A stretch of 64,000 bases of DNA from a virus: the IMG/VR virus record IMGVR_UViG_3300045988_176682; one strand, 5' to 3'. The notes under the pieces were generated by a model that was given only the letters and a program-made list of their open reading frames with translations, was not told the DNA's origin and did no database searches. The position numbers and the translations under genes are program-made. Shown here piece after piece: positions 21,094-37,330 of the stretch (positions within the stretch are counted from its first letter, which is position 1; the number at the start of each line of letters is the position of its first letter).

Positions 21094-23559
21094 ATGGGAA
21101 TTTTTAGCGAAAACGCCCCTAAATTATGGGCTTTAGGGCTACCGGTTATGCCTCTCTACCCCAAAGAGAAGAATCCTATCGTTCCGTCTTGGCAGCAGTT
21201 CGCAGAACGGATGCCAACTCCGGACGAACAGGCTTTCTGGCTTAAAAACTATGCCAACGGTAACATTGGCCTCCCTCTCGGTCCGCAGTCAGGCTGTGTA
21301 GCTCTTGATATTGATACCGAGAATGACGAACTCTTCAAATTAGTTTGCGGCCTTGTTCCGCAATCCCCGTGGAATCGTATCGGTTCTCACGGAAAGGTGA
21401 TGCTTTTCAAGTACACCGGCCAAAAAACTTTCCGTATCAAAGATATTGACGGCGTAACTATTTGCGAGCTGCTTTCAGCCCGTACACAGGTTGTTATTCC
21501 TCCGTCAATCCACCCCAAAACTCAGAAACCTTACTATTCGGATACTAATCTGGAAGATGTAATAAAAAATCTGCCGGTACTTGACCAGAACATTGAGAAC
21601 ATTCTTCGTCAATCTCTCGAAGATTTTGGCGTAACCCTGTCTCACTCAGGCTGGACAAGAACCACGGATTACATTTCCAGAGGAAGCCGTGACGTAAAAA
21701 TGACTTCTATGGCCGGTTTCTTTGCCAACGGGATTACCAGAGGAGAGCTCTCGGTTAAGGAAGCCATTGCAAGAATGTACGCTTGGTATTCTTCCTGCGT
21801 GGAACAGATTGCCGGAGATGATGTCGACATTGATAAAGGCATCAGAAACATGATTTCTTTCCTCGTGCAAGACGTTATCGGGCCAAAGAAGAAGGTTCTG
21901 CCGCGAGGGTGGGACGAGGGCCTCTCCGAGGAAGAAAAAACCCAAATGGGGCTCAATTTTAATACCGAGCTCGAGGAGTGGGACTATAATCGCTTAAAAG
22001 AATATCTTTACGAGCAATTCAACCTTCATGCAGAGGATTCTGTCCAGCGCTCGGAAGCAATCGAATATATCTTATGCCGAATCGCCCGGTCTCCGAGCCT
22101 GACATCGCTTGACGAGGACCGAATCCTGAAATATATCAGCCAAACTTGCAAAAACATCCAGCTTTCTGCCCTCCGGAAGCGCTTAAACGAGTTAAAAACA
22201 GGCGATTTAAGAGGAACCAACCACACAGAAATCGCCCGTGCCGTTATCGAGGAAGTCCGCCGGTCAACGGATATGCACTTCTTCCAAGACAAATTGTGGC
22301 GGTGGAACGGCTCGAACTGGGAATCGCAGCCGGAACAAGAGCTGCTTGAAATGATAGCCAACAACTTCGGTCATCTGCCGGCCGCAACTCGAGCCACAGA
22401 CCATGCAGGTATCATCAGAATCTTAAAAAATATCGTACCGCAGGGGTTAACCGTTAACGGAGTTCCTCAGGCAAACGGCATTAACTTCGCCAACGGGTTC
22501 GTCGATATGGAAGGAATCCTCCATCCACACAATCCGGCCTATGGTATGACCTACACTCTTCCTTTCCGGTATATGCCGGAACTGGGAACATTAGACCATT
22601 GTCCTCGTTTTAAGCAGTTCCTTACCGATGTTTGGGGAGAAGAAAAAGACTTCACCCAACGGGTTCGGGCTCTTCAAGAGGTAATGGCCTCCACTTTCTT
22701 CGGTATCGGCACCTCTTTCTCACGAGCCGTCCTTCTTTATGGTATTGCCGGTTCGGGCAAATCCCAGTTGTTGGAAATCGTGAAAAACCTGCTGCCGCAG
22801 AAAGTGGTATCTTATATCCCGCCCTATGACTTTGACGACAGATTTAAGGTGACGGAACTTTCCCGTTCCATCATGAACATCTGCGGAGAGTTACACCGGG
22901 ATAAAAAGATACCGTCCGCCGCTTTCAAGCAAATCATTGACAGCTCCGAACTGTCTGGCCAATATAAAAGCCGCCCCTTGTTTGATTTCCGCCCGAAAGC
23001 GACGCATTGGTTTGCCAGCAACCACCTTCCGAAGTCGGATGACGATACCGAAGGCTTTAACCGTCGGTGGTTAATCCTGTCGTTTAACCATCCGGTTTCT
23101 TCGGATAAAAAAGTCCGTAATATTGGCGATATAATCGTCGCTGAGGAGAGAGAAGCCATTGCGGCCTGGGTAGTATCGGTGATAAACGAGCTGCGTAAGC
23201 AGAGCGAATATTCGATACCCGACAGCCACTATAGCTTTGTCTCGGAGATGGCTTCTGAAAACGATACACTTTTTTTCTTTCTCATCTCGGACAAGGGGCC
23301 GAGAAAGGTATTGAACGACGACGGGAGCTTATCAGAAAGTACGAAAATACACGCCGACAAACTCTACGAAGAATACACCGCCTTTTGCTACTCTACGGCT
23401 CATGCCCGGCCTGTGGGGTTGAAAAGATACTCTCAGAGGCTGAGGGAATTGTCGATTTTTATGGGATTCAAAGTGGACAGTTTGACGGTGTATGGACTCA
23501 CAATGGACAAGGGCCAGGCTACAATGGCGAAGAGTGTACCATTGATAAGAAACTTTTAG
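21094..23559 (+). CDS. DNA primase-helicase (prim-pol N-terminal domain + D5_N + P4-type SF3 helicase)
   Basis: 821 aa. VALDIDTEN is a prim-pol DxD motif. Walker A LLYGIAGSGKSQLLEI. C-terminus resembles P4-alpha/D5-like helicases. Confidence 0.8.
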   Translation: MGIFSENAPKLWALGLPVMPLYPKEKNPIVPSWQQFAERMPTPDEQAFWLKNYANGNIGLPLGPQSGCVALDIDTENDELFKLVCGLVPQSPWNRIGSHGKVMLFKYTGQKTFRIKDIDGVTICELLSARTQVVIPPSIHPKTQKPYYSDTNLEDVIKNLPVLDQNIENILRQSLEDFGVTLSHSGWTRTTDYISRGSRDVKMTSMAGFFANGITRGELSVKEAIARMYAWYSSCVEQIAGDDVDIDKGIRNMISFLVQDVIGPKKKVLPRGWDEGLSEEEKTQMGLNFNTELEEWDYNRLKEYLYEQFNLHAEDSVQRSEAIEYILCRIARSPSLTSLDEDRILKYISQTCKNIQLSALRKRLNELKTGDLRGTNHTEIARAVIEEVRRSTDMHFFQDKLWRWNGSNWESQPEQELLEMIANNFGHLPAATRATDHAGIIRILKNIVPQGLTVNGVPQANGINFANGFVDMEGILHPHNPAYGMTYTLPFRYMPELGTLDHCPRFKQFLTDVWGEEKDFTQRVRALQEVMASTFFGIGTSFSRAVLLYGIAGSGKSQLLEIVKNLLPQKVVSYIPPYDFDDRFKVTELSRSIMNICGELHRDKKIPSAAFKQIIDSSELSGQYKSRPLFDFRPKATHWFASNHLPKSDDDTEGFNRRWLILSFNHPVSSDKKVRNIGDIIVAEEREAIAAWVVSVINELRKQSEYSIPDSHYSFVSEMASENDTLFFFLISDKGPRKVLNDDGSLSESTKIHADKLYEEYTAFCYSTAHARPVGLKRYSQRLRELSIFMGFKVDSLTVYGLTMDKGQATMAKSVPLIRNF

Positions 23560-23583: not shown

Positions 23584-23802
23584 ATGACAAATAACAACCG
23601 TATTTACAGAAGGGACCAATTACGGTTCCTTACTGCTGACGTTAACCGTATCTTAGCCAAAGCCAGGGAAATAGAGAAAGATTTCCCGGACGATGACAGG
23701 GACGGCGCTAAGGAAGATTTAGGTCTTGCAATCCAACATCTTGACAAAGCGTTTTATCATTTAAGCTGGACGTTAGCCGGAGAAATGGACCCATGGGATT
23801 AG
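23584..23802 (+). CDS. hypothetical protein
   Basis: 72 aa ORF. Confidence 0.4.
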   Translation: MTNNNRIYRRDQLRFLTADVNRILAKAREIEKDFPDDDRDGAKEDLGLAIQHLDKAFYHLSWTLAGEMDPWD

Positions 23803-24407
23803 AAGCTATGATGACGAGAATGCAATCTGATTTATTAGAAAAATATACCATTTACAGCAAAGACAAAAAGCTTAAGCAAATAAACTGGCCGATACCGGTA
23901 AACGTTGAGGGGATAACTCCCCCCAAGACGTTTGCCTTGAAAGGTCAAAAAATGACCTTTAAGCTATACTCGACCAAGAAAGCCAAGGCGTTTATCGAAT
24001 GGGCTCTTACCGAGCTGTCTTTAAGCAAGAAGGAATTTTACAGCACTTGCCGGAGAATGGACGTTGTTAAGAAACGGTCACTAATTGTTTATGTGCTAAG
24101 GTGTGAATTTGGCGTTCCCTGTGTACAGGCCGGGGAGATGATAGGCAGAAACGTATCGCAAATTCCTTATCTTCAGATGGTTGCCATAAGGGAATATGGC
24201 GAGGAGCTAAAAGAAGTAGGAGACCTTATTAAGAAATGGAGAGAATATGATGCAGAACCCCGATGCCAACAACAACGCCAACAGCAATGCCAACAGCAAT
24301 GCCAACAACACCAGCAACACCAACAGCAATGCCAAAAGGATAAAGATTGTTCACAAAGACGGAAAAACCTATACCTATCCTCTAAGCAAAGTCCCCTCGT
24401 GGCTTAA
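23793..24407 (+). CDS. DnaA-domain-IV-like HTH protein, paralog 1 (3' end uncertain)
   Basis: KKRSLIVYVLRCEFGVPCVQAGEMIGRNVSQIPYLQ fits the DnaA C-terminal pattern ([32 protein letters not shown]). Homology ends near 24262. The frame then runs through a CAACAG/CAATGC repeat as a Gln-rich tail to 24407. Confidence 0.55.
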   Translation: MGLEAMMTRMQSDLLEKYTIYSKDKKLKQINWPIPVNVEGITPPKTFALKGQKMTFKLYSTKKAKAFIEWALTELSLSKKEFYSTCRRMDVVKKRSLIVYVLRCEFGVPCVQAGEMIGRNVSQIPYLQMVAIREYGEELKEVGDLIKKWREYDAEPRCQQQRQQQCQQQCQQHQQHQQQCQKDKDCSQRRKNLYLSSKQSPLVA

Positions 24408-24831
24408 GCATAAGGGAGAGTCTACCCAAAGGTATGACTGGCCGATTCCGATTGGCGAGAAGAGAGGGCCATGGACGGACACGCCTCCTGAGGTATATTA
24501 TGTAAAGAATCAGGAGATACGGAAAAAGAGAGGGAAAGCTGAAACTCTGGGGTGGAAGGATTGGGTGGGAGACTTCATAAGATTTACTTGTGAAAGAGAA
24601 GGTGTAGAACTCTATAATATTCTTTCTCCGGACAAGCATTCCCGTTTTGTAATAGTGAGAGCCCTTATTGTGTATGCGCTCAGGTGCAGGGGTGTTTCAC
24701 GATGGCAGTTGGGGAAAATGTTACACAGAGACGGGGCTACTATACAATACTTACAGGGAAAAGCGGTAGCGTTATTTGGTGACAAACTGAAAGAAGTCAG
24801 CAAGTTACTTGAGGAGTGGGATGATAGATAA
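24247..24831 (+). CDS. DnaA-domain-IV-like HTH protein, paralog 2, with Asn-rich N-terminal low-complexity region
   Basis: HSRFVIVRALIVYALRCRGVSRWQLGKMLHRDGATIQYLQGKAVALF matches the DnaA domain IV pattern, including RD..T. Shares the WPIP and KLKEV..LLEEW blocks with paralog 1. Confidence 0.6.
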   Translation: MMQNPDANNNANSNANSNANNTSNTNSNAKRIKIVHKDGKTYTYPLSKVPSWLKHKGESTQRYDWPIPIGEKRGPWTDTPPEVYYVKNQEIRKKRGKAETLGWKDWVGDFIRFTCEREGVELYNILSPDKHSRFVIVRALIVYALRCRGVSRWQLGKMLHRDGATIQYLQGKAVALFGDKLKEVSKLLEEWDDR

Positions 24832-24892: not shown

Positions 24893-24919
24893 GACCCTTC
24901 CTTTTGGAAGGGTTTTTTA
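24893..24919 (+). terminator. intrinsic terminator
   Basis: GACCCTTCC tttt GGAAGGGTT followed by TTTTT. Confidence 0.55.
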
Positions 24920-24927
24920 TTGGGTAC

Positions 24928-25194
24928 GGGAAAGGGAAAAGATAAAAGGGTCACAGTTAGGTTACTGGAAGGTGTCCTAATATGTCCTATCCCGAAAAAT
25001 TTCGGAATCGGATTCGGGAAAGGGAAAAGATAAAAGGGTCACAGTTAGGTTACTGGAAGGTGTCCTAATATGTCCTATCCCGAAAAATTTCGGAATCGGA
25101 TTCGGGAAAGGGAAAAGATAAAAGGGTCACAGTTAGGTTACTGGAAGGTGTCCTAATATGTCCTATCCCGAAAAATTTCGGAATCGGATTCGGG
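24928..25194. repeat. three perfect 88-bp direct repeats (iteron-like), each with internal inverted repeats
   Basis: Period 88, measured from the recurrence of AAAGGGAAAA at 24931, 25019 and 25107. Each unit contains CCGAAA-aa-TTTCGG and GAATC-g-GATTC inverted repeats. Followed by an AT-rich tract at 25200..25395. Confidence 0.9.
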
Positions 25195-25395
25195 AGGGCC
25201 CTGTCCCCGGTTCCCTTGCCGATTCTCTCTCAAAAAAAACATACTACCCTTGCACTAAGTCTTTGATTTTACTTATTTACACCCTCTTTGTTCAATTTTT
25301 TATATTTATATGTTGTCAAGCTTTTTTATTAATGTTACCTTACCACTATAAACAGCGTTTTTAACATTCATATTTTACACACAGAGGATAATACC

Positions 25396-25764
25396 ATGAC
25401 AAATATAGCAACCTTAAACCTGCAAACAATTAACCAGTCAGACGATTTTATTGCCAACGCAAAAAAAGCACTCCGCGCCGATATGGTTAACAGCCGCAAA
25501 TTGACGCTTGACAGCATCACAGCAGTTGCCGCCCTATCCTATTCTTTGTTTATCCATAATAACCCCGACTCCGATTTCTCGATATATCGGGTAAACTCAA
25601 CAGAGATTAGCGAGTCCAGATTGCGCCAACAACTAATCAACTCTATATTTAACAAGCAGCAGTTGGAAGAATTGCAGAGCTCTGAAGGGCGAGTCATATA
25701 TAACAAAGTGTGCGCCGGCATGATTATCTTTAAAGACAACCTTAACAGATTTCATGCCCTTTGA
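25396..25764 (+). CDS. hypothetical protein
   Basis: 122 aa ORF. Confidence 0.45.
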   Translation: MTNIATLNLQTINQSDDFIANAKKALRADMVNSRKLTLDSITAVAALSYSLFIHNNPDSDFSIYRVNSTEISESRLRQQLINSIFNKQQLEELQSSEGRVIYNKVCAGMIIFKDNLNRFHAL

Positions 25765-25881: not shown

Positions 25882-26418
25882 ATGTTAAATTTAACGATTA
25901 AAAACCCGAGACCGGGAACATTTACGAACAAACATATCATGATTGATATTGAATTGAACGGCAAGTTTATTTCAACTTACGAATGCAATCCGTTTTATCA
26001 AATGGATACAAAAGGCGAAATTTTCAATCAAATAGTAAATGCTATAAGTTGGTCAAATTCGAAGTACGATACTGGAACCGCTGCAAGATTATTTAAGATT
26101 TATTGTGGTATGGAGTGTGGTAAAGATTTATATTACGATACCGTAAAATCTTTCATGAATATAATCCTTAAAACCTTAAAGGATAAGATTTTGGATTTAA
26201 TTGACCTTAAAGATGTTGAAAGATGTTTGTTTAATGATGCCGAGTGTTTTGAATCCGGTTCCGATTTCGAGGACTTTTGCTTTAACCTCGGTTATGATAC
26301 CGACAGCATTAAAGCTTTAAAAGTTTATGAGGGCTGTAAGGAAATCTATCTGAAACTGGTTCAAACTATCGGTTCAGAGAAATTGAGAGAAGGCATTGAA
26401 TATTATCGGGAGAATTAG
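25882..26418 (+). CDS. hypothetical protein
   Basis: 178 aa. GGGAGAAAAAGCA-ATG ribosome-binding site. Its 5' end is partially duplicated at 28175..28230. Confidence 0.55.
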   Translation: MLNLTIKNPRPGTFTNKHIMIDIELNGKFISTYECNPFYQMDTKGEIFNQIVNAISWSNSKYDTGTAARLFKIYCGMECGKDLYYDTVKSFMNIILKTLKDKILDLIDLKDVERCLFNDAECFESGSDFEDFCFNLGYDTDSIKALKVYEGCKEIYLKLVQTIGSEKLREGIEYYREN

Positions 26419-27048
26419 CCATATATATTTTTGAGCGGGATGAGGTTATGAACAGATTATAATCCGGATTCAGAATTATTTAGGGATACTTTACCACGGG
26501 TATGGGAGGTTTTAGGTTCGGAGTGTCTCCGAACGGGGAGAAAGGAGAAAAATTTTAAATCGGGATATGAATCGATTCATAAAAAAGTTAATTTTAGACT
26601 AATTTGACGGAAGGAGATTTCAACTACAGGTAGGGAGATAGGTGAAAAAGCACGCAAAATTTTAACTCAAATGATATTCCTCTCTTGAATATATTTATAT
26701 TGACATTTGACAAATTTTGAATAAAATATTTCCAGAATCACCGGATTATAAACAAAACGTCGAATTACGTCAAAATTTCTCTATTTGTCTTTTTTGTCAA
26801 TCATTCATATTTTAATAAATTATTGATTCTATTATATATTTCTTCTTCTCTATTATTTCTCACTTCGTTTAGAATCTGAGTTTTATTTTTAGACAAAATA
26901 ATTTTGTATAAAAAAAATAACATAATAGGGTAAAAATAAAAACGATGTTTGACTCTTGTAAGGAAAGATTTTATTTTGTAAAAACAAAGACATCTCGTTA
27001 GATGATTATCTGGACAAAATTTTAGTCTACATAAAAAGGAAAAAAATA

Positions 27049-27270
27049 ATGATTTTACAACCAGTTGTTAAAAAAAGCGCTTTAAATTTAAACAAAATTG
27101 AACAAAACAACAAATTTAACCGGGTTTTCTGGAATCCGAGATATGAATCGATTCATAATCACGAATCAATTCAAGTCAAAAAGCCAAACCCTATTGTAAC
27201 CGGATTATTCGTCCTGTTAACCGTGGCTGTTGTCTGGTTTATTATGTTTATGGTTTTCATCATTTTTTGA
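27049..27270 (+). CDS. small membrane protein
   Basis: 73 aa with a C-terminal TM helix (GLFVLLTVAVVWFIMFMVFIIF). Contains the ATGAATCGATTCAT palindrome. Confidence 0.4.
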   Translation: MILQPVVKKSALNLNKIEQNNKFNRVFWNPRYESIHNHESIQVKKPNPIVTGLFVLLTVAVVWFIMFMVFIIF

Positions 27271-27283
27271 GGAGGAATTTTTT

Positions 27284-27775
27284 ATGATAATAAAACCGAA
27301 AGAGTTTCTAAACGAGCATTGGTATCTGGATTCTAAAACCGTTACCCCTGTCGAGTTCGTAAGAAGTTTTTATTTGCGTTCCGGGGTACATTTGGGGGGC
27401 ATCTTCTCTCTAAATCCGTGCAAAGATAAAAAATGTTGTAATCCGTATCATTTCCGGGTTGGGCTTTATAAAGGAAAAACCGGAGCAATTAGAACAAAGA
27501 TGTTAAACCTTTTAGATACCGCCGACGACATTAATTGGATAGAGTGTATGGCTCATGGCCCTAAGGGTTATCTAAATTTATATAATTCTATGCAGGAAAG
27601 GGAGGCCTTTAAAATAACCGAAACCGAATTGGTACAGGCGTTTTTTCTAAAAGCCCTAAGTTTAACCCCGGAACAAAAAGCTTTGTCTTTGGATTTTTCG
27701 AGGATTTTAAATAATCCTAAAATTATGGGAATACTAACTAACACAATTATGGGAGCCGATAAGGCCGAAAAATAG
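27284..27775 (+). CDS. hypothetical protein
   Basis: 163 aa from the ATG at 27284, with GAGGAGG 9 nt upstream. The ORF-track start at 27230 is unlikely. Confidence 0.5.
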   Translation: MIIKPKEFLNEHWYLDSKTVTPVEFVRSFYLRSGVHLGGIFSLNPCKDKKCCNPYHFRVGLYKGKTGAIRTKMLNLLDTADDINWIECMAHGPKGYLNLYNSMQEREAFKITETELVQAFFLKALSLTPEQKALSLDFSRILNNPKIMGILTNTIMGADKAEK

Positions 27776-27881
27776 GCCAAGGAAACGCGAATCAGCTATT
27801 TTTGGTATAAGGGTAGCCAAACGATAAAAAAGCCTCTGTACGGGCAAAAAAAATATGAATTTGATGAGGAGGGTTATATCT

Positions 27882-28172
27882 ATGAATAAATACGAAATGT
27901 GCAGGTTTTGTGCCAAACAGGGCTGGGAAGAGGTCCGCAAGGATTTAGCAAACGCCAGGGTATTTGATTATAAGGACAAAGAAGAGTTCCTTTGTAATTT
28001 TGAAAATGATTTTTATTCGCCTTGTTATTCCAGATTTGATAACGGTTTCTATTTTGAAAGCGGTAGCTGCTGTTTTGAGATAGAATGGTTGGATAATAAG
28101 GTTACTTTGACGGGAAATGTTAACTATTTTCCGAAAGACAGCCCGGAAATTTACAATTACTGTTTTGAATAA
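27882..28172 (+). CDS. hypothetical Cys-containing protein
   Basis: 96 aa from the ATG at 27882, with GAGGAGGG 8 nt upstream. Contains CRFC...C...CC. Confidence 0.45.
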   Translation: MNKYEMCRFCAKQGWEEVRKDLANARVFDYKDKEEFLCNFENDFYSPCYSRFDNGFYFESGSCCFEIEWLDNKVTLTGNVNYFPKDSPEIYNYCFE

Positions 28173-28185
28173 GAGGAGAAAAACA

Positions 28186-28266
28186 ATGCTTAACTTAACG
28201 ATTAAAAACCCGAGACCGAGGACATTATCAATTTATATTCATATCCGAAAAAAAAGAAATCTTTAA
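28186..28266 (+). pseudogene. 26-codon remnant duplicating the 5' end of the 25882 gene
   Basis: AGGAGAAAAACA-ATGCTTAACTTAACGATTAAAAACCCGAGACCG is about 85% identical to 25869..25915. It encodes MLNLTIKNPRPR then diverges and stops. Confidence 0.4.
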
Positions 28267-28377
28267 GAATGCTGAGAGTAGACTAATTGAAAGGGTTTCG
28301 TATGTTAATATAATTCAAAACGGAGACCTTGAGGATATAGATTTTGTTAGGAAATTTTATAGGGGAGATATAATGCT

Positions 28378-28680
28378 ATGACATGTATAAATCAAATAGA
28401 AATCGATAGAGATTTCGAAACCGAAATCGTATTTGATTACGAAAAAATTAAGAATATTTTAACCGAAAATGAACATGAATGTATAGAGGAAATTATCCGG
28501 GTATTAATTCAAAAAGATTTTACCGTCCAATATCTCGGTTGTGATATTTATTGTATCGGAAATAAAAAGATAAGCGTTCTAATGGCTGATAAAAAATTAC
28601 AGCCTCTTATCGAATTATACCGGGAAGGCGGAGAAAAAATCGGACAGATTACAGTAATTGAGGAAAATGAGGAGAAATAA
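28378..28680 (+). CDS. hypothetical protein
   Basis: 100 aa ORF. Confidence 0.45.
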   Translation: MTCINQIEIDRDFETEIVFDYEKIKNILTENEHECIEEIIRVLIQKDFTVQYLGCDIYCIGNKKISVLMADKKLQPLIELYREGGEKIGQITVIEENEEK

Positions 28681-28681
28681 G

Positions 28682-29389
28682 ATGAAAACCAACGGCAAAT
28701 ATAGAGCAGCTATTTATATCCCTTTCTTTACGGGATTTTATGGTACAGTTTTCGAATCCGATGATGATATAGTTAGCACTATCTTTACAGAGGATATAAA
28801 AGAGCGCTTAGAAATCAAAAACCTTAATGATGACAAATTGGAAGATGCTATCGAAAGGGTTTCGGTTTGGGATTATTTCGATAATAAAGAATATGAGAAA
28901 GATATCGGAGAGCAGTTCGTTTATTGGTTAAACAATGAGATTTCCGATATTGAAATCTTAAAAGGTTTCGGATTTGAATATGAATCGATTCATCATCCAA
29001 AAGAATATAATTTTACAACAGATAAAATCGAGGGCTACTTAAACGTCCCGGCCGGAGGGATTGACCGAATTATAAAAGAAATCGAAAGCGATGAAGATTT
29101 CGATGAATATTGCAAGGAAAATTTCTCTTCCTATTCTGGTTTTGTTTCCTTTATTCCAAATAATAAAAAAGATTTTTTGGAAACCTTAAAGGAATATGTG
29201 AAATGTGATGATGAAGTCAATTTTAGTCGAAATTTCAGTCTTATGGTTAGGTATCTTATTGAAAGGGAATTATCTGAACGTGATATTGAGAATATAACCC
29301 AGAATACCTTAGAAAACGTTTGGGAGGGAAATTATTGTAACAGGGATGGTTACGATAATGAATTGATAACGGTTTATAATCACTTATAA
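28682..29389 (+). CDS. hypothetical protein
   Basis: 235 aa from the ATG at 28682, with GAGGAG upstream. Acidic. Contains the third copy of the palindrome. Confidence 0.5.
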   Translation: MKTNGKYRAAIYIPFFTGFYGTVFESDDDIVSTIFTEDIKERLEIKNLNDDKLEDAIERVSVWDYFDNKEYEKDIGEQFVYWLNNEISDIEILKGFGFEYESIHHPKEYNFTTDKIEGYLNVPAGGIDRIIKEIESDEDFDEYCKENFSSYSGFVSFIPNNKKDFLETLKEYVKCDDEVNFSRNFSLMVRYLIERELSERDIENITQNTLENVWEGNYCNRDGYDNELITVYNHL

Positions 29390-29410
29390 CATCTGATAGG
29401 GAGAAGAAAA

Positions 29411-29656
29411 ATGATAATGTATGAATTAATACCAACAAACGGAAGAAAAAGTTTTAATAAAAAAGCTTTGGTTTTGGAAGAATCAGACGGTAAGGTTTTG
29501 CTTAGTTATGGAACCAGAATTATGAAAATTTTTGATAATGGTTTCATAGTGAGATATTGGGATGGTTGGATAACCACAACCGGAACGCATATTAAATCAT
29601 TTTCGGGGCTCAATAAAAAGGAATTTTTGGAATTACCATTAATGGAGGATTTTTAA
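29411..29656 (+). CDS. hypothetical protein
   Basis: 81 aa ORF. Confidence 0.45.
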   Translation: MIMYELIPTNGRKSFNKKALVLEESDGKVLLSYGTRIMKIFDNGFIVRYWDGWITTTGTHIKSFSGLNKKEFLELPLMEDF

Positions 29657-29657
29657 G

Positions 29658-30026
29658 ATGAGAATAAAAGTTATTAAAAAAGACGGCAAGCCCGTCGCTG
29701 TTCGCGCCGCTGAGGTTAACGGCCGCGTTATCAATATTGCGCTGAAAGATGAGTCTAATTGTTTGAATTGGTATAATGCCCTTGAAAAGGGTATTCCGTC
29801 ACTGGCGGAATGGCTGGCAATCTCAGAGAATTTTGAGGCGGTAAACAAAGCCCTGAAACGTGCAGGTGGCGAGCCTTTAAAAGATGAATATTACTGGTCT
29901 TCGTCCGAGTACGGCTACAACTACGACTACCACGCGTGGGTCGTCAGACCGTCCGGCGGCGGCATGGACTACGGCCATAAGAATACCAGTACCCGCGTTC
30001 GTTGTGTTTTTATTGAAGAAAAATAA
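29658..30026 (+). CDS. hypothetical protein (locally GC-rich gene)
   Basis: 122 aa. GC content visibly higher than its neighbours. Confidence 0.45.
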   Translation: MRIKVIKKDGKPVAVRAAEVNGRVINIALKDESNCLNWYNALEKGIPSLAEWLAISENFEAVNKALKRAGGEPLKDEYYWSSSEYGYNYDYHAWVVRPSGGGMDYGHKNTSTRVRCVFIEEK

Positions 30027-30114
30027 AAAAGATATATACATCTATAGAACAAATTAATTGATTCTTAAACTTTTTCGTGATAGGACATAATAAGACATAT
30101 AAAGGAGATTTCTT

Positions 30115-30534
30115 ATGGAAGAAAATGAAAAAATTTTATCAGGACTGACAGCAGCTTTGAAGTCCGGATATAAATATTTCTATGTTCCGGTTCCAGACGA
30201 TTTTAGCTATAGTAGCATATATGGAAGAGTTAAAACTATCGCTAAAGAAATAGGAATTGAAGTAAAGGTAAGATCGAGAATTATTTTAGACGGGGATACC
30301 AAAACCTATTCTAAAATAGCTATCGTTGAAGTATCGGGAATTGATGATAAATATGTTAAAAAGGAAATTGATAAACAGAAAAAGAAAAAAGATGACCTAG
30401 AAAAGAGAGTCGGGTTAATTTGGGAACTTAGAGATAAAGGATACAATTATCGGGAAATTGCGGACAAGTTACATTATAAGTCTCCCGCCTCTGTTATGTA
30501 TATTTTAAGAAAGGCGCTAAAGTATGGCTTATAA
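30115..30534 (+). CDS. DNA-binding protein with C-terminal sigma70-region-4-like HTH
   Basis: RVGLIWELRDKGYNYREIADKLHYKSPASVMYILRKA. Confidence 0.45.
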   Translation: MEENEKILSGLTAALKSGYKYFYVPVPDDFSYSSIYGRVKTIAKEIGIEVKVRSRIILDGDTKTYSKIAIVEVSGIDDKYVKKEIDKQKKKKDDLEKRVGLIWELRDKGYNYREIADKLHYKSPASVMYILRKALKYGL

Positions 30535-30937
30535 AGAAATTGATAAAGAAACCCGGCATGCGATTGAGATGTTAAAGGGTTGCAAATCCGAGACCTTTAT
30601 CGCCAAACATTTTAATGTATCAGTCCCAACCGTGAGAAAAATCCACGGGAAAGATAAAAATAAAAAGAAAGTTATATTAACTCCGGAGCAGGTCGAAGCT
30701 TTGAAAAAGGCCAGAGACCATATCCGGGCATTGAGAAAATACGGAACCGAAAGGTATAATGAATTGGCATCTATGCAAGTTTGGGAGACCGAACTCCCGG
30801 ATGTTAATGTTGTCCTTTTGGAAGGATATCATCGTTGGAACCTTTATGACCGTAAAGGTGTATTGAGAAACGGTCTTAAATTGACCGATAAATTGAAAGA
30901 TTGTTCTAATTTCAGAGAAGTAATGGAGGTGTTATGA
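30524..30937 (+). CDS. HTH DNA-binding protein
   Basis: N-terminal KSETFIAKHFNVSVPTVRKIHG helix-turn-helix. Confidence 0.45.
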   Translation: MAYKEIDKETRHAIEMLKGCKSETFIAKHFNVSVPTVRKIHGKDKNKKKVILTPEQVEALKKARDHIRALRKYGTERYNELASMQVWETELPDVNVVLLEGYHRWNLYDRKGVLRNGLKLTDKLKDCSNFREVMEVL

Positions 30938-31503
30938 AAATAGATATGGACTCCCTTAGAAAAGGGGACGTACTAAAATTTGAAAATGGAGAGGAAGCCA
31001 AGATTGAAAGCATTGCTTTCCGGATGGACGATAAGAAATATTATATCGATCTTGGGACGAAAGTTGCTTTCCGTTTCGATAGCGAGGGTAAATGCGAATT
31101 TCCGGCATATAATATTTCGGAAGCCGTTTTGGTTGAAACCGAAGATGATAAAATAACTTATTACGTCCCCAATATCTTTTGGCAGTTAACCCCGGTAGTC
31201 TCTATTACCGTGAAAGGAGCCAAGAAACCTCTCAAACAAACGATTGTAAAGTCCATTTTTGAGTTGGATGGATTGGGTCCTTTCTATCATGGAGAGATTA
31301 TAAAAGCCGAAATCCTGCCCGTAGTTTACGCTGAGCTTCGTAAATGTAAGGGAAGAGATGTCTCTATACTTAAAACAGAAAAAATCTTCTGTAAGGACGA
31401 AAAAGAGGCCGTAAAAACGGTCGAGACTTTTAAGGAAAAATATCTGGTAGCCGCAGAGGAGAAATCAAATGATGACACCGGAAGCGAAGTTAAAACAATT
31501 TGA
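30934..31503 (+). CDS. hypothetical protein
   Basis: 189 aa ORF. Confidence 0.45.
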   Translation: MKIDMDSLRKGDVLKFENGEEAKIESIAFRMDDKKYYIDLGTKVAFRFDSEGKCEFPAYNISEAVLVETEDDKITYYVPNIFWQLTPVVSITVKGAKKPLKQTIVKSIFELDGLGPFYHGEIIKAEILPVVYAELRKCKGRDVSILKTEKIFCKDEKEAVKTVETFKEKYLVAAEEKSNDDTGSEVKTI

Positions 31504-31726
31504 GGACGTTTATGGTAAAATCGACTTTTGTAATTTGTTGCAAATACCTGATGATATAAAAAAGATTGCCAAATTGGCTGAGGAAAATAGGTTGTTTCAG
31601 GTATATGTGAGGAAAGAACATCTGATAATCACTACCGAGTTTCAGACCAGGATAGAGGCTCTTGGATTTTTTGCCTCTTCCAAAGCATACGAAGCTCCGG
31701 AAACGATAATGATTCATTTACAGTGA
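31469..31726 (+). CDS. hypothetical protein
   Basis: 85 aa ORF. Confidence 0.35.
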   Translation: MMTPEAKLKQFEDVYGKIDFCNLLQIPDDIKKIAKLAEENRLFQVYVRKEHLIITTEFQTRIEALGFFASSKAYEAPETIMIHLQ

Positions 31727-31736
31727 GGAGTAAAGA

Positions 31737-31907
31737 ATGAAAAAATCTTTGAAGGTAAAGGAACTAAGGAAATATTTGGAAACAATGGACGAAGACGCTC
31801 AGGTTATTGTCCAGACCAGATATGGGAAAGTTTCTATCGGATTAATCCGAGAGGGTGTCAAGGATGAAAAGAATTATGTAATTCTTGATGTAGTTTATGA
31901 TAATTAA
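31737..31907 (+). CDS. hypothetical small protein
   Basis: 56 aa (MKKSLKVKELRKYLE...). GAGGAG ribosome-binding site. Below the ORF-track cutoff. Confidence 0.35.
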   Translation: MKKSLKVKELRKYLETMDEDAQVIVQTRYGKVSIGLIREGVKDEKNYVILDVVYDN

Positions 31908-31917
31908 GGAGATTAAA

Positions 31918-32175
31918 ATGAAAGATGATATGGAAGCTATTAAAAAAACTCTTGTTGGACTTGAAGGATTGCCTCTTCTCGATTTCTGCTTTAATAATTA
32001 CATTATTGCTTTTAAGTCTGGTTTTGGGGATTATCTCGTTTTATGTAATTCATTCTCTATGGAGGTATCTGAAAAAACAGCTCAGAAGATTTATAAAGTT
32101 CAAGAAGATTATTATAAAGACATGAAAGCTCAAAACTGGGCTAAGGGTCAATTTGGAAATGCAGGAGATGATTGA
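31918..32175 (+). CDS. hypothetical protein
   Basis: 85 aa from the ATG at 31918, with AAGGAG upstream. Confidence 0.4.
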   Translation: MKDDMEAIKKTLVGLEGLPLLDFCFNNYIIAFKSGFGDYLVLCNSFSMEVSEKTAQKIYKVQEDYYKDMKAQNWAKGQFGNAGDD

Positions 32176-32462
32176 TGGCTTGTTGGTATCCTAAAAGAGA
32201 AGAAAAGAATATTCTTGATTTATTGTTGAATGACAACAGATACCGTAAGGTTCTTTTGAAAATAAAAGAAATGAAAAATCCGAGAGATTCTTATTTGAGA
32301 TTTATTTCAAACAATATGGATTGGATTTATTCTGAAATGAAGAAAGAGTTTGAAAGTCATTTCTACCGGCTGTGTCTTCCTTTCGTTAAATTGATACTAA
32401 AGATAAAAACTTTGATGGAGAAAATAATTGAGAAAGTCAACAATCGAAAGAAAAATTCTTGA
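32172..32462 (+). CDS. hypothetical protein
   Basis: 96 aa ORF. Confidence 0.4.
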   Translation: MMACWYPKREEKNILDLLLNDNRYRKVLLKIKEMKNPRDSYLRFISNNMDWIYSEMKKEFESHFYRLCLPFVKLILKIKTLMEKIIEKVNNRKKNS

Positions 32463-32832
32463 CACCCTAGCAGTCTACCGGAAGTGGCAGAAAGAAAAAT
32501 TCCCTCTTCAAAAAGAACAAGGCTGGTTGTGTAAGGTAAACGAAGAATTTAAAGAATTTTATGCCGAAACCAAGAAAAGAAATAAGGACATTAACCTTAT
32601 TATGGAGGAAGCTGCGGATTATTTGTTTGTTTTACAGGGTCTCAAGGATTATTCCCCGGATTTGGCCAAACATCTGGAGAGTATTTTCTTTCTGGCTTAT
32701 TCAAAGCTTCTTTTCAAGGAAGAATTTGTAACCATCATGGAAATGAAATTTACTTATAATCAAACAAGGGATTTTAAATTTGTTCCACTTCCGGAAGGAG
32801 ACGGGATTTATAAAGGAGACCACCATGGCTAA
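32428..32832 (+). CDS. MazG-like nucleotide pyrophosphohydrolase
   Basis: KVNEEFKEFYAE ... IMEEAADYLFVL, the EExxE...EExxD all-alpha NTP-PPase signature. Confidence 0.5.
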   Translation: MRKSTIERKILDTLAVYRKWQKEKFPLQKEQGWLCKVNEEFKEFYAETKKRNKDINLIMEEAADYLFVLQGLKDYSPDLAKHLESIFFLAYSKLLFKEEFVTIMEMKFTYNQTRDFKFVPLPEGDGIYKGDHHG

Positions 32833-33439
32833 AATATTTTGGTTAGATTTGGAAACCGGAGGAGTTGATAAAAAGATAAATCCGGTATTGCAAATATCCG
32901 GTCAAATAGAAATCGACGGAGAAGTGAAAGAAAGTTTTAACTATTTTGTTAAACCCTTTGACGGACAGGTAATTGACCCCGAGGCTTTGGCTGTATCCCA
33001 TATTAATCCTGAGGATTTGGTAACATTTGAGGAACCGAGACAGGTATTGAATGCCATTAAAAGGATGATGGATAATTATGTCAGCTTTTGGGATAAGACC
33101 GATAAATTTCATTTGCATGGTTATAATTCCAGATTTGATGAGGATTTCTTTCGGGAGTTCTTCAAAAATTGCTCTACAACAGAAAAAGAGTACAAATACG
33201 GAAATGGTTTCGGTTCTTATTTTTGGACACCCTCTATTGATGTAATGCAAATTGCGGCCAGGGAATTAATGGAAAGGAGGGGAGAGCTTCTTCTCACTAA
33301 CTTTAAGCTTAAAACAGTCTGCGAAGCTTTTGGTATCGGAGAGGATTTTAACTGGCATGATGCTTCGGTAGATATTGAAGCAACCAAACAATTATATAAA
33401 GTTTTAACGGCGGGAGAAAAGAATGGGAGAAGTGATTGA
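32825..33439 (+). CDS. DEDDh 3'-5' exonuclease (DnaQ-like)
   Basis: Exo I FWLDLETGG, Exo II HGYNSRFDEDFF, Exo III HDASVDIEAT. ATG at 32825. Confidence 0.75.
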   Translation: MAKIFWLDLETGGVDKKINPVLQISGQIEIDGEVKESFNYFVKPFDGQVIDPEALAVSHINPEDLVTFEEPRQVLNAIKRMMDNYVSFWDKTDKFHLHGYNSRFDEDFFREFFKNCSTTEKEYKYGNGFGSYFWTPSIDVMQIAARELMERRGELLLTNFKLKTVCEAFGIGEDFNWHDASVDIEATKQLYKVLTAGEKNGRSD

Positions 33440-33617
33440 TTTTTATAAGTCTCTTGACATTATCAAAAATAAATGTAAAATGAGGACAATATCGGACATT
33501 ATAAGACAAAAAGAAATTTCTGTTGAAGCTGAAAACAAATTAAAAAACCAGTTAGTGTCTGATGCCAATAAATTTTGTTTGATGCTAGGGATATGTAATG
33601 GAAAAAATACCAATTAG
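33423..33617 (+). CDS. hypothetical protein
   Basis: 64 aa ORF. Confidence 0.3.
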   Translation: MGEVIDFYKSLDIIKNKCKMRTISDIIRQKEISVEAENKLKNQLVSDANKFCLMLGICNGKNTN

Positions 33618-34065
33618 CTATTGGGGAATACACGAATTAGAGGGGGTTAAATTCTATCTTGAACCAGGAACGGTAGATGATGATTTTTGCCCCTTCCATC
33701 CAGTACGAAACATAGTTGAGTGTCCCCATAGAGGACTGTCTGAAAAGACTACCAGAAATTGGTATAAAGCGGCCTACATTCGTTCTGATACGATGAAAGC
33801 TGACAAATGTTTGGAAATGGTCCCGGAAGGATTAATTTTAGATGATAAAACGTTTACATTTTTTCATGCAAAATTAATGCCGGGGCGGAGCTTTCTTTTG
33901 AAAGCATTAAGAATGACAAATGCACTTCCCGTTTTTATTTACGGGATAGATATGGGAACTGATATGGATAAGTTGCTGCCTTTTACACAGCTTCAATATC
34001 CAAGACCCATTTATTTTTGCGGAGACCCATATGTTCCGGTTCCTCCGTATATTAAAATAATTTAA
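33598..34065 (+). CDS. hypothetical protein
   Basis: 155 aa ORF. Confidence 0.45.
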   Translation: MEKIPISYWGIHELEGVKFYLEPGTVDDDFCPFHPVRNIVECPHRGLSEKTTRNWYKAAYIRSDTMKADKCLEMVPEGLILDDKTFTFFHAKLMPGRSFLLKALRMTNALPVFIYGIDMGTDMDKLLPFTQLQYPRPIYFCGDPYVPVPPYIKII

Positions 34066-34079
34066 GAGGGAGAAAATCA

Positions 34080-34430
34080 ATGGATAACGTAGCTTTATTG
34101 AATACTTACATGCAGCTCAAAAGAGAAGAGCTTGCGGCCAAAGAAAAAAGACTTGAAATCGAGCAGGAATTGCTGGAACTTTATGGAGATAATGTAGCTG
34201 AGGACAGAGTATCGGCAACCATTACCGAAGGAAATTTCCAGATTAAAATTAAAAGAAACATCAAATATACCTGTAATGAGAAAGGTTGGGAGTTTATCGA
34301 ATCTCTTCCGGCTGACCTCCGTCCGGTAAAAATTGAATTAGACCAGACAAAGGCTAAGAAAATGCAATGTATGGCCCAATATCTGGAACAGCATGAAACA
34401 AAACCGACTTTCGAAGTTGTAATCAAATAA
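34080..34430 (+). CDS. hypothetical protein
   Basis: 116 aa ORF. Confidence 0.45.
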   Translation: MDNVALLNTYMQLKREELAAKEKRLEIEQELLELYGDNVAEDRVSATITEGNFQIKIKRNIKYTCNEKGWEFIESLPADLRPVKIELDQTKAKKMQCMAQYLEQHETKPTFEVVIK

Positions 34431-34440
34431 GGAGATAAAG

Positions 34441-34746
34441 ATGTCTTATTCAGTAGAAGATGTAAGAGAAATAATATCTAAAATGGATATTGTTGAATCA
34501 ACCGAAACACCAGGTTTATTGAAGCAAGCCAGAGAGGATATTTATATTGGTAATTTTGGTGATGATGAATTTACAAAACATTTTGTTGCCAATCTTCCAA
34601 ACTTCTATCTTTATCTTAAAAAAATTGTAAATGGAAAATCGGAAGATGTTCTCGAAGATGCGAAAGAGTTTCTTAATCATTTTGAAAATATGGCTAAGGA
34701 GCAGCTTTCTACTTCGGATTTTGTAAACCTTTTGAAAAAAGAATAA
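34441..34746 (+). CDS. hypothetical protein
   Basis: 101 aa ORF. Confidence 0.45.
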   Translation: MSYSVEDVREIISKMDIVESTETPGLLKQAREDIYIGNFGDDEFTKHFVANLPNFYLYLKKIVNGKSEDVLEDAKEFLNHFENMAKEQLSTSDFVNLLKKE

Positions 34747-34768
34747 TATCAAAACAGGCGGCGGTAAA

Positions 34769-36106
34769 ATGTTAGAGAATTTTAGTTTAAGACCATATCA
34801 ATCAGCCCAGTTGGGTTTTCATATTCAGCAGGTAAGAAGCCTTAATCTGTCCTCTCCAGGCACGGGAAAAACTCCCACTGCTTGTTTGTTTATCAATTAT
34901 CTGGTAAGAAATGAGGGGGTTAAGGTAGCCTTTGTTATGCCTAAATCTCTTCTTAAGAAAAACTACAGTGAACTTTTTAACTTCGCTGATTTCAAAGAAG
35001 AAGAGGTCGCGATTGTGACTGGAACTCCACAAAAAAGACAGAAAATATACAAGGACCCTAATGTCAAAGTATTTTTGATGGGATTTGACATGTTTTCTAA
35101 AGAATGGGGGAAACTTCCATATGAAACTAATGGCCTGGTTGTCGATGAATTTCATATGGGATATAAGACGGATAGTTCGGCCAGAACTCAATCCTTTTAT
35201 AAGTCGATGAAAGTTATTAAATGGTTTCTGGGGATGACCGGAACTCTTATCGATGGAAGATTGGATTCAGCCTATCCGGCCATTCGGGTTATTAATCCGA
35301 ATTATTATATGAGTTATAATTCTTTTAAGGCTATGCACGCTTTGTATGATTGGGATGGTCAATTAATCGGATGGATAAACCACGACCGTTTGGCTAGAAT
35401 TTTGAGCAAGCATGCTGTGGCCATTAAATTCGAGGAAGCATATAAGAACTCGCCCAAGCCAATTATTATATCTCAAGAGTGTGAAATTATGAATCAGAAA
35501 CAGAAAAAAGCTTATAAAGAGATGGAAGAAATGGCTTTGGTTGAGTTGGAAGACGGTTATTTGGAAGCTCACGGTTCCGGAGGTGTAAAGCAATTAAGAT
35601 GCCGACAGATTTTGGAAGCTCCGGAAAGTGTACTTCCCGGTTTCAAAGGAGAGCTCGGAAAAGATGAAGCCTTAAAAGTTCATCTTGAAGATGCCAAGAA
35701 TAGCGGAAAACCTCTTTTAATCTTTTCAGTATTTCGAGCTGAACAAGACCGGTTAAAGAAGCTCTGCGAGGAATATGGATTTAAAACGGAGCTGATGAAT
35801 GGAGACACTTCGGATAAAAACCGAGCAAGAATTGACAGCGAATTTAGAGAAGGAAAGATTGATATTGTAATCGGTTCTCCGGAAGTTATGTCTGTTGGCT
35901 TTAACTGGCAGCATGTTGATACGGTTATCTTTGTCAGTATGGATTATAAAGATAGTAATTTCAAACAAGCTATGCAGAGAGCCGACAGAGGAACGAGAAA
36001 ATATCCTTTGAGAGTAATCCGTCTTTATTATGGCGTAGCGGTTGAACACCGTCTATGGCAAATTATCAAACGTAAACAAGAAGATGTTAAGAAAGTAGGG
36101 TGGTAA
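34769..36106 (+). CDS. SF2 DNA helicase (SNF2/UvsW-like)
   Basis: LRPYQ, Walker A SSPGTGKT, DEFH box, helicase-C motifs (GDTSDKNRARIDSEFREGKIDIVIGS...QAMQRADRGTRK). Confidence 0.75.
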   Translation: MLENFSLRPYQSAQLGFHIQQVRSLNLSSPGTGKTPTACLFINYLVRNEGVKVAFVMPKSLLKKNYSELFNFADFKEEEVAIVTGTPQKRQKIYKDPNVKVFLMGFDMFSKEWGKLPYETNGLVVDEFHMGYKTDSSARTQSFYKSMKVIKWFLGMTGTLIDGRLDSAYPAIRVINPNYYMSYNSFKAMHALYDWDGQLIGWINHDRLARILSKHAVAIKFEEAYKNSPKPIIISQECEIMNQKQKKAYKEMEEMALVELEDGYLEAHGSGGVKQLRCRQILEAPESVLPGFKGELGKDEALKVHLEDAKNSGKPLLIFSVFRAEQDRLKKLCEEYGFKTELMNGDTSDKNRARIDSEFREGKIDIVIGSPEVMSVGFNWQHVDTVIFVSMDYKDSNFKQAMQRADRGTRKYPLRVIRLYYGVAVEHRLWQIIKRKQEDVKKVGW

Positions 36107-36107
36107 A

Positions 36108-36443
36108 ATGATTAATGCTAAAGAAGAATTAGAAAAAAAGCTAAAAGAAATTGGAAAGACAATTAAAGATATTTATTGGATTCAGATTTATACGGAAGAC
36201 TGGGTAAAAAATTCTTTAAGAAAAAAATCCTTATTGGATTCTGATATTTCTCAGGAAATAGAATCTAATTGGGATAATCTAGATTTCACCTATGATAATG
36301 GTTTTGGGGGCCAGGAGCTTTATGGAACAGTTATCTTCAAAGATGAATCTTGGCTAGAGAGGGGTGAATATGATGGGTCTGAATGGTGGAACTATAAGAA
36401 ATTACCTGAATATAAAAAAGGAGCTTATTTAGATGAAATTTGA
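36108..36443 (+). CDS. hypothetical protein
   Basis: 111 aa ORF. Confidence 0.4.
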   Translation: MINAKEELEKKLKEIGKTIKDIYWIQIYTEDWVKNSLRKKSLLDSDISQEIESNWDNLDFTYDNGFGGQELYGTVIFKDESWLERGEYDGSEWWNYKKLPEYKKGAYLDEI

Positions 36444-36648
36444 AGAAGTAATGCCATATATGCGAGAAGGTAAAAAGGTTATCCGAAAATCTCTTTCACA
36501 TCCTATCTTCATATCTGATTATACAAATAGCTTTGGGGAGACTTACAAGGCCTTTTGTTTTCATGGTGATAAATATATAAATTATTATGAAATTACTCAG
36601 AATGATTTATTTGCGGAAGATTGGGAAGTAATTGGTAGGGTTGATTAG
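36433..36648 (+). CDS. small phage protein of the MKFEEalkamreGKkv..W family (I recall this as DUF2829), paralog 1
   Basis: MKFEEVMPYMREGKKVIRK...DWEVIG. Confidence 0.5.
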   Translation: MKFEEVMPYMREGKKVIRKSLSHPIFISDYTNSFGETYKAFCFHGDKYINYYEITQNDLFAEDWEVIGRVD

Positions 36649-36707
36649 TAACAAAATACAAGCTAATCAAGTAGCTGATATTAAAATACAAGAAAGAGGA
36701 TGATAAG

Positions 36708-37118
36708 ATGACTTTAAAGAAAGAATGGAAGAATAAAACTCTTGATACAGATAAAATGTATTGGGTTTTATTTAAGGATTGTAAATCTCCGGAGGTTAGA
36801 AAACTAAACCAAAACTGTCAATTTATCGATAAATATGGTTTTCCCATTAGTCCAGTAAGGATTATAGACGTTTTGGATGTTTGCGATTATGACCAGTTTG
36901 TTGAGCTTAAAGAAAAGTTAAAACAACTAGAAGAAACCGCCGCAAAAGCAACAGAAATCGCTCAGGCTGCCAGTAAGGACAACGAACATTTGCGAGAATT
37001 GCTTAGGGAAAGTAGAGGTAGTGTATGGCTTGAACGTGAAAACGACGGCTCCTTGGGAAATACCGTATGGGATAGATTAACTAAACTTTTAGACGAGATA
37101 GATGAGGCATTGAAATGA
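36708..37118 (+). CDS. hypothetical protein, paralog family ...LDEIDEALK (member 1)
   Basis: 136 aa. N-terminal W..L..YW domain, coiled coil, and C-terminal LLDEIDEALK. Confidence 0.45.
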   Translation: MTLKKEWKNKTLDTDKMYWVLFKDCKSPEVRKLNQNCQFIDKYGFPISPVRIIDVLDVCDYDQFVELKEKLKQLEETAAKATEIAQAASKDNEHLRELLRESRGSVWLERENDGSLGNTVWDRLTKLLDEIDEALK

Positions 37119-37330
37119 AAAACCTGTTACACGCTTTTGCTCCTTTAATGGCTATTACTGCCGTTTATGACGGCTTGTATGAGGGTAATTTATCACCCAA
37201 GGTAGTTGATACTCCACAAAGTGAAGAAAGTATTGCAGCGTACAAAAAAGCTGCTGAGGAAAAGAGAAAACGTAGAGCAGAAAAAAGGAAGGAAAAAAGC
37301 AATGAAAAGAGTAATGAATTTAACAGATAA
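37115..37330 (+). CDS. hypothetical basic protein
   Basis: 71 aa, Lys/Arg/Glu-rich C-terminus. Confidence 0.3.
   Translation: MKNLLHAFAPLMAITAVYDGLYEGNLSPKVVDTPQSEESIAAYKKAAEEKRKRRAEKRKEKSNEKSNEFNR

Follow-up and report, generated by a model that had tools for sequence, protein, structure and literature searches.

The subject of this analysis is a short perfect palindrome that recurs in the early region of an uncultured siphophage, and what it may do there. The DNA is IMG/VR virus record IMGVR_UViG_3300045988_176682, of which the whole stretch of 64,000 nucleotides analysed is called the window below; it represents most of the phage genome, and about 10 kb of the genome lie outside it. Genes for tape measure, major head, portal and large terminase proteins occupy the minus strand from 1 to 20 kb. 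On the plus strand from 20.6 kb come a primase-helicase gene (21094-23559) and three 88-bp iterons, followed by a long run of small genes and then by genes for a helicase, exonucleases, a family-A DNA polymerase and SbcCD. The palindromes lie among the small early genes 3' of the primase-helicase gene and the iterons. The features of this part of the window are as follows, with protein lengths in amino acids (aa).

24919..25195, no strand: three 88-bp iterons, a putative origin, with the quasi-palindrome GAATCgGATTC at 25005, 25093 and 25181
26566..26581, no strand: palindrome copy 1 (TATGAATCGATTCATA, core 26567-26580), site class C, non-coding, about 120 bp 5' of the promoter-like site
26700..26727, plus strand: the best sigma-70-type promoter-like site of the region (TTGACA-16-TAAAAT, 11/12 consensus matches), a consensus match only
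27142..27157, no strand: palindrome copy 2, a perfect 16-bp palindrome, site class D, in the gene of a 73-aa predicted membrane protein, frame YESIH
28980..28993, no strand: palindrome copy 3, a 14-bp palindrome, site class G, in a 235-aa gene, frame YESIH

Copies of the palindrome in the window and in related phages

Searching the 64 kb window with the 16-mer ATATGAATCGATTCAT gives exact matches at 26565-26580, 27141-27156 and 28978-28993. The 14-bp core of this word, ATGAATCGATTCAT, is a perfect palindrome starting at 26567, 27143 and 28980, and copies 1 and 2 extend into the perfect 16-bp palindrome TATGAATCGATTCATA. Three exact copies were what the original prediction, made from the letters of the window alone, had reported, and it placed two of them correctly, but its third position (28997-29012) is wrong by 19 nucleotides. 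It had also put the first copy in non-coding DNA and the other two in different open reading frames (ORFs), both as YESIH, and the ORF translations confirm this: around copy 1 there is a 630-bp stretch without any ORF of at least 40 aa, while copies 2 and 3 lie in the 73-aa ORF at 27049-27270 and the 235-aa ORF at 28682-29389. Allowing up to two mismatches adds no further copy to these three in the window, and the search at that threshold returned 6 strand-wise matches against 0.06 expected by chance. In 200 first-order Markov simulations, 14-mers with at least three copies appeared at a mean of 0.015 and such 16-mers at 0, which bears out the claim that a three-copy 16-mer is beyond chance. 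The palindrome is the sole dispersed 14- or 16-mer with at least three copies in the window, the other words of this kind being tandem repeats.

No relative of the window was found in INPHARED or IMG/VR, and the JGI metagenomes yielded two loci only. In a collection of 15 billion proteins, related uncultured gut siphophages are represented by many near-identical contigs of 70-77 kb from human-gut assemblies. Eleven relatives that cover the region (L001, L007 and L014-L022) carry six to eight copies of the exact 14-mer, and one more, L008, carries three. All of these copies fall into one stretch of about 5 kb, reaching from the gene that follows the iterons to the 235-aa gene; the 14-mer occurs neither in the rest of the relatives' 20-kb loci nor in the other 61 kb of the window. 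The original prediction had itself named homologous positions in related genomes as the place where the motif should be looked for, and the outcome is clearly in the motif's favour. By position, the sites are assigned to these classes.

class A: directly 3' of the stop codon of a gene of about 240 aa, non-coding; absent from the window
class B: non-coding; absent from the window
class C: non-coding; copy 1 of the window
class D: inside the 73-aa gene; copy 2 of the window
class E: at the start codon of an ORF of about 45 aa; absent from the window
class F: inside a 196-aa gene; absent from the window
class G: inside the 235-aa gene; copy 3 of the window
classes X and Y: occasional, at gene ends; absent from the window

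A deletion and a translocation have left the window with classes C, D and G only. About 1.3 kb with classes E and F is missing from it, and the gene of about 240 aa after the iterons is cut down to 122 aa (25396-25764). The 178-aa gene, which in relatives follows a 96-aa gene, is found here at 25882-26418, and a leftover of its start (MLNLTIKNPRP...) is seen at 28186-28266, in the region 28152-28266.

Our data show that the palindromes are under strong purifying selection on DNA and not on protein. Across classes, 3 of 70 columns vary in the core as against 98 of 300 in the 30-bp flanks (Fisher p = 1.6e-7). Sites entered this test by core similarity, and classes C, D and G were therefore also located by their flanks alone; the core of these flank-located sites is exact in every genome outside a hypermutated lineage (L005 and L006, discussed below). 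Class C is exact at the homologous position in 12 relatives and class G in 18/18 non-hypermutated ones, and class D is exact in both of its divergent alleles, whose proteins are 43-51% identical and whose surrounding block is about 67% identical in DNA. The palindrome of class G covers five codons that are frozen, synonymous positions included, and the very next codon is CAT, AAT, AGT or CGT (H, N, S or R). That selection acts on DNA follows from the reading of the motif, which is YESIH in classes D, G and Y, MNRFI in E and F, and non-coding in A, B and C, and from homologues of the 235-aa protein at 25-35% identity, which are without YESIH at that position. The 16-bp extension is preferred as well, with T at -1 in 13 of 15 contexts and A at +1 in 11 of 15.

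Such conservation bears directly on the proposal that the palindromes are targets of restriction-modification or of a methyltransferase (GANTC for CcrM or HinfI, ATCGAT for ClaI), or else a by-product of chance or of coding, a proposal that is largely refuted and to which we give hardly any credence. Each copy does contain two GANTC and one ATCGAT. However, the invariance spans 14-16 bp and not 5 bp, ATCGAT is at about chance level (13 copies), and GANTC is depleted in the window (175 observed, 251 +/- 15 expected from shuffles). Because GANTC is depleted and conservation goes far beyond 5 bp, the methyltransferase or nuclease site put forward in the original prediction had to be given up. Scans against Pfam, PHROGs and NCBIfam, which covered about 70 window ORFs and not every ORF, gave no integrase, repressor, recombinase, ParB (ParBc), ParA, LacI-type or CcrM-type (N6_N4_Mtase) match, and no CcrM-type enzyme appeared among the early and middle ORFs scanned. 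Chance is excluded by the simulations, and a coding cause by the reading frames and the distant homologues. The under-representation of GANTC by itself would fit avoidance of HinfI-type restriction in the host.

Several other observations on palindromes of the region should be mentioned. One or two degenerate copies stand in tandem behind the palindrome in L019 (6896-6940) and L021 (6619-6650), giving ATGAATCGATTCAT GAATACGATTCAT GAATACGGTTCAT, at a 3' gene end and directly 5' of a conserved 107-aa gene. A second palindrome, GGATTATAATCC, stands about 110 bp 5' of class C (L001 4850, L007 1088) and is single-copy in most relatives; its counterpart in the window is the degenerate AGATTATAATCC at 26454-26465, and in L005 it is present three times (51, 130 and 248) in 79-bp direct repeats at the contig end. 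More distant phages with homologues of the 235-aa protein (L159 and L160) have no recurrent palindrome.

Duplex DNA, transcripts and the exchange of modules

A perfect palindrome in transcribed genes may also act as a hairpin in early mRNA, as a translational operator, a processing site or an antitermination signal. It is true that all sites lie in one transcriptional orientation block, and that the ATG of the palindrome is a possible start codon in classes A and E, with a Shine-Dalgarno-like sequence 5' of it in class E. The hairpins, however, are weak (-1.8 to -3.6 kcal/mol) and no better than those of shuffled sequence, all 14 of 14 positions are invariant, including those of the would-be loop, and the site is found in two frames and in mid-gene. 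We consider a role in RNA very improbable, and the surroundings of classes B and C speak against it too. Between classes A and B lies another hairpin, of 14 bp, with four compensatory pairs and then a T-rich tract (L001 4708-4750). It is kept at homologous positions in nine relatives, is absent from the window, and is probably the terminator of the upstream gene of about 240 aa. The promoter-like site, which is also present in L001 (5096-5123), lies between copies 1 and 2 of the window; upstream, class C is about 120 bp away, and downstream, class D is about 440 bp away. Classes B and C are found downstream of the terminator-like hairpin and upstream of the promoter-like site and are therefore probably situated in a little-transcribed spacer, which favours recognition of the palindrome as duplex DNA. 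RNAalifold pairs site A with site B, a result that was discounted as automatic for two identical palindromes; from its run on the A-B interval only the inner hairpin with the compensatory changes was used. Rfam gave no match in the region 24.8-29.4 kb.

The region is highly mosaic, and the palindromes might owe their conservation to being junctions at which early-gene modules are exchanged, either by a site-specific enzyme or through micro-homology. Recombination hot spots bounding the module of small genes had been among the roles first proposed, and in one respect the proposal holds: two allele groups are about 93% identical up to class C and about 60% identical directly beyond it, copy 1 being the left edge of a block with two alleles. 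The neighbours of classes A, X, Y and E, moreover, change from genome to genome, and one-sided homology is observed at 39% of palindromes versus 22% of control positions, an enrichment that is modest and that comes from genome pairs which are not independent. In other respects it fails, as every genome pair is collinear at classes F and G and the breakpoints of the window's own deletion and translocation are not at palindromes. It should be added that no recombinase gene is present among the ORFs scanned, and that any conserved regulatory site would draw crossovers as a by-product. Exchange of modules as the main selected role of the palindromes appears to us improbable.

Candidate binders, the iterons and host regulators

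Proteins that might bind the palindrome are encoded on both sides of it.

23793..24831, plus strand: two overlapping paralogous ORFs (23793-24407 and 24247-24831), with C-termini like the helix-turn-helix (HTH) of DnaA domain IV
30115..30534, plus strand: 139-aa protein with a C-terminal HTH like sigma region 4, second candidate binder
30524..30937, plus strand: 137-aa protein with an N-terminal HTH of resolvase/transposase type, candidate binder, with sub-threshold HTH matches

The 137-aa and 139-aa genes lie just downstream of the sites in every relative. For the 137-aa protein, matches to HTH_Tnp_ISL3, HTH_7, HTH_38 and HTH_28 are consistent in six family members, all of them below Pfam cut-offs. 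At E <= 0.001, 1.84 billion cluster representatives include just 7 of its family, one as part of a 2268-aa protein; a profile search of the PDB gave nothing significant. The 139-aa protein matches HTH_38 and HTH_28 at E of about 0.007 and SigX at E 0.0016, again below the curated cut-offs. A 163-aa protein encoded beside classes D and E was considered as a specificity determinant or nuclease and rejected, as its two alleles do not track the type of site; Pfam, PHROG, NCBIfam and PDB offer no match to it.

The paralogous ORFs bring in the iterons. Taken together, the iterons and these adjoining ORFs probably represent an origin and its origin-binding protein or proteins, and a match of the L001 orthologue to Bac_DnaA_C, weak at E 0.013, points in the same direction. 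(A low-complexity repeat of CAACAG type, at 24255-24338, lies in the overlap of the two ORFs.) The original prediction had noticed the GAATC and GATTC half-sites of the palindrome in the 88-bp units, and indeed each unit contains GAATCgGATTC, that is, the arms of the 14-mer plus one extra central base. The pattern GAATC-N0-3-GATTC occurs six times in the 64 kb window, three times in the iterons and three times as the palindromes, and the chance of finding it is about 3e-4 per 88-bp unit. Thus, the palindromes could be dimer sites of the iteron-binding initiator, serving in titration, handcuffing or repression of nearby genes. Paired arms confined to iterons and palindromes, sites that are all to one side of the iterons and start at most about 1.4 kb away, and putative DnaA-IV-like HTH proteins encoded beside the iterons agree with this view. 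On the other hand, the spacing of the arms differs by 1 bp and the outer bases are CGGAATC in the iterons versus ATGAATC in the palindromes, so that one dimer would not necessarily recognise both; the palindromes are spread over 2.4-5.6 kb, into genes far from the origin, and the weakness of the DnaA match has been noted. In iteron plasmids, inverted-repeat operators control the initiator gene (RepE of F, pi of R6K). The palindrome may resemble such operators in that its arms recur, 1 bp further apart and with other outer bases, in a sub-motif of the neighbouring iterons. Unlike the single operator at a rep promoter, the phage sites are many and extend over kilobases with the spacing 1 bp off, and they stand 1.4-4 kb downstream of the iterons, in or between unrelated small genes, with no overlap with an initiator promoter. 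We regard the initiator as an unlikely reader of the palindromes, if one deserving attention.

Another potential reader is a regulator of the host. Operators of the LacI family are typically even palindromes with a central CG, and the phage site has just this form (ATGAAT-CG-ATTCAT). In addition, its inner 12 bp are identical to the operator consensus of Cra, a LacI-family protein of E. coli, gcTGAAtCGaTTCAgc (PMC5888115); the outer bases differ, being TA...TA in the phage site and GC...GC in that of Cra. A Cra/FruR-type regulator of the host reading these sites would couple early phage genes to host physiology, and the scanned ORFs, which yielded no clear-cut regulator of the phage's own, leave room for it. 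However, every copy of the palindrome is identical over 14-16 bp, whereas sites of host regulons are usually degenerate. Scans with the exact 16-mer were tried as a pointer to a host regulon or to another phage group, and both IMG/VR and GTDB gave scattered single matches: the 13 in IMG/VR are chance-like, and those in 185,579 species genomes belong to unrelated phyla and show no regulon-like pattern among the matches listed. The ORFs scanned contain no LacI-family protein, and the likeness to LacI systems is one of resemblance only. All in all, a host factor of this kind is an improbable explanation. Literature on the palindrome sequence brings up only the Cra consensus and unrelated primers. 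In an unrelated bacterial contig from a metagenome-assembled genome of Thermoanaerobaculia (L078, DASYJF010000031.1), five copies of TATGAATCGATTCATA occur within 280 bp (2183-2459), 44-108 bp apart. As to the host itself, it is suggested to lie outside Bacteroidota, because the genes of the window carry Shine-Dalgarno sequences.

The hypermutated lineage of L005 and L006 deserves separate consideration, since in it TCGA is changed to CCGG at all three homologous sites (ATGGACCGGTTCGT, ACGGACCGGTTCAT and ATGAACCGGTTCAT) and the 137-aa protein carries K28R and P35S in its HTH. The affected stretch (L005 1-13683, L006 1-8758) is homologous to about 26450-39000 of the window. Over 7.3 kb, 138 of 146 substitutions private to this lineage (95%) are A>G (79) or T>C (59), while eight other genomes have balanced spectra. 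Mutated A sites have C at -2 in 131 of 224 cases versus a background of 16%. Near the 235-aa gene about 7% of A/T sites are mutated; upstream of it the figure is higher still, and some 7 kb downstream it has dropped to about 1.5%. Many residues that are otherwise invariant have become G, R or P. Because the central A of the palindrome is in the preferred context on both strands, the symmetric change of TCGA to CCGG is automatic and says nothing about the binder. K28R is an A>G change and fits hypermutation, whereas P35S, a C>T change, is not explained by it. Adenine deamination in DNA, a biased polymerase and an artefact are possible causes, and this sister lineage may be a more unusual lead than the palindromes are.

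Three further observations concern proteins encoded elsewhere in the window. Two small ORFs (36433-36648 and 39684-39857) have a common MKFEE...REGK start; two scanned ORFs, possibly but not necessarily this pair, match a Tad2-like anti-Thoeris domain; and a 542-aa ORF at 43881-45509 contains an intein with a LAGLIDADG domain.

A proposed operator set for the early genes

We suggest, with a probability of roughly one half, that (T)ATGAATCGATTCAT(A) is a cis-acting site in duplex DNA for a protein acting as a symmetric dimer, most likely one that controls early transcription; binding by a protein, the symmetry of the dimer, the transcriptional role and the identity of the binder are all inferred. 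A symmetric dimer is proposed because all 14 positions are invariant, the dyad symmetry is perfect and the T/A extension is preferred. Of the roles listed in the original prediction, a regulator operator is the one best supported, by three to eight invariant copies per genome in about 15 relatives amid diverging flanks. The occurrence of the motif in two frames as well as in non-coding DNA, the weak hairpin and the location of two site classes between the terminator-like hairpin and the promoter-like site bear it out further. So do the operator-like build of the site, an even palindrome with a central CG whose inner 12 bp match the Cra consensus discussed above, and the HTH proteins encoded just downstream in every relative.

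How such a set of operators would work can be sketched as follows. The three to eight sites of a genome would make up a small regulon-like set within about 5 kb of early genes. With classes A, B and C upstream of the early promoter-like region and class D downstream, a bound protein could bring about repression or looping, and at classes E, F and G, which lie in downstream genes, it might act as a roadblock to elongation. Early genes would in this way be switched off at a set time or come under feedback control. The binder would probably be encoded by the phage, and the 137-aa HTH protein, whose gene lies just downstream of the last site, is the first candidate; in its place one may think of the 139-aa HTH protein, of the DnaA-IV-like proteins encoded beside the iterons, or of a host factor.

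Several points weigh against this interpretation. None of the sites overlaps the -35 or -10 element of the best promoter-like site, from which copy 1 is about 120 bp away on the upstream side. The binders are candidates only, and every HTH assignment falls below the cut-offs of Pfam and NCBIfam. Structure prediction was of no use here: the single-sequence AlphaFold2 (AF2) model of the 137-aa protein has a predicted local distance difference test score (pLDDT) of 54 and the AF2 model of the 163-aa protein one of 39, both too poor for use. Coevolution of site and regulator in L005 and L006 was rejected, all palindrome changes there being of the hypermutation type. Finally, iterons with identical arms and breaks of homology at some of the sites fit rival explanations.

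Comparison with known systems may help to place the proposed operators. KorB-OB of plasmid RK2 and ParB-parS rely on palindromes of 13-16 bp that are present in several exact copies, some of them intragenic. The phage palindrome is of similar length, and its identical copies lie near a replication origin and partly in coding regions; unlike those systems, it is accompanied by no ParBc or ParA match in about 70 window ORFs, with about 10 kb of the genome outside the window. The PeSL elements of T4-type phages combine an early promoter with a stem-loop at the borders of gene cassettes. In the present phages, too, there are short elements repeated in a hyperplastic early region, with some copies at module junctions, but no promoter-like site is adjacent to them, their hairpin is a weak one, and the copies of classes D, F and G are in mid-gene. 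A further parallel is provided by the stoperators of Cluster A mycobacteriophages (L5 type), repressor sites of 13-14 bp scattered genome-wide, which are asymmetric and oriented, are bound by a monomeric immunity repressor, number about 20-30 per genome and belong to temperate phages (PMC6550527, PMC9283540). Like them, the sites described here are short and near-identical, several are intragenic, they follow the transcribed direction of early genes, and a roadblock is plausible for both. In contrast to stoperators, the phage site is a perfect palindrome present in 3-8 copies over about 5 kb only, and the ORFs scanned contain no repressor or integrase. One could go further and picture, in a gut siphophage that is virulent, a new kind of control system for the early region, similar to stoperators but built on palindromes and dimers: the orphan 137-aa family (an HTH of resolvase/transposase type plus a small beta-rich domain) would bind the sites, both flanking the early promoter and blocking elongation inside genes, and the sites would double as crossover points of cassettes. 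In so specific a form we find the idea unlikely.

Elements of this type are ordinary in phage control, but for this phage group they have not previously been described. Early regions of phages are well known for sets of recurring operators, and no long-standing question is opened by the present ones. The group is widespread and uncultured, it inhabits the human gut, and the neighbouring HTH gene is found on more than 80 contigs. The 16-mer can be used at once as a probe. The palindromes also illustrate how regulatory sites can be embedded in coding sequence in either of two frames, and, if confirmed, they would define a cis-element of the early programme of these phages and narrow its possible regulators to a few candidates.

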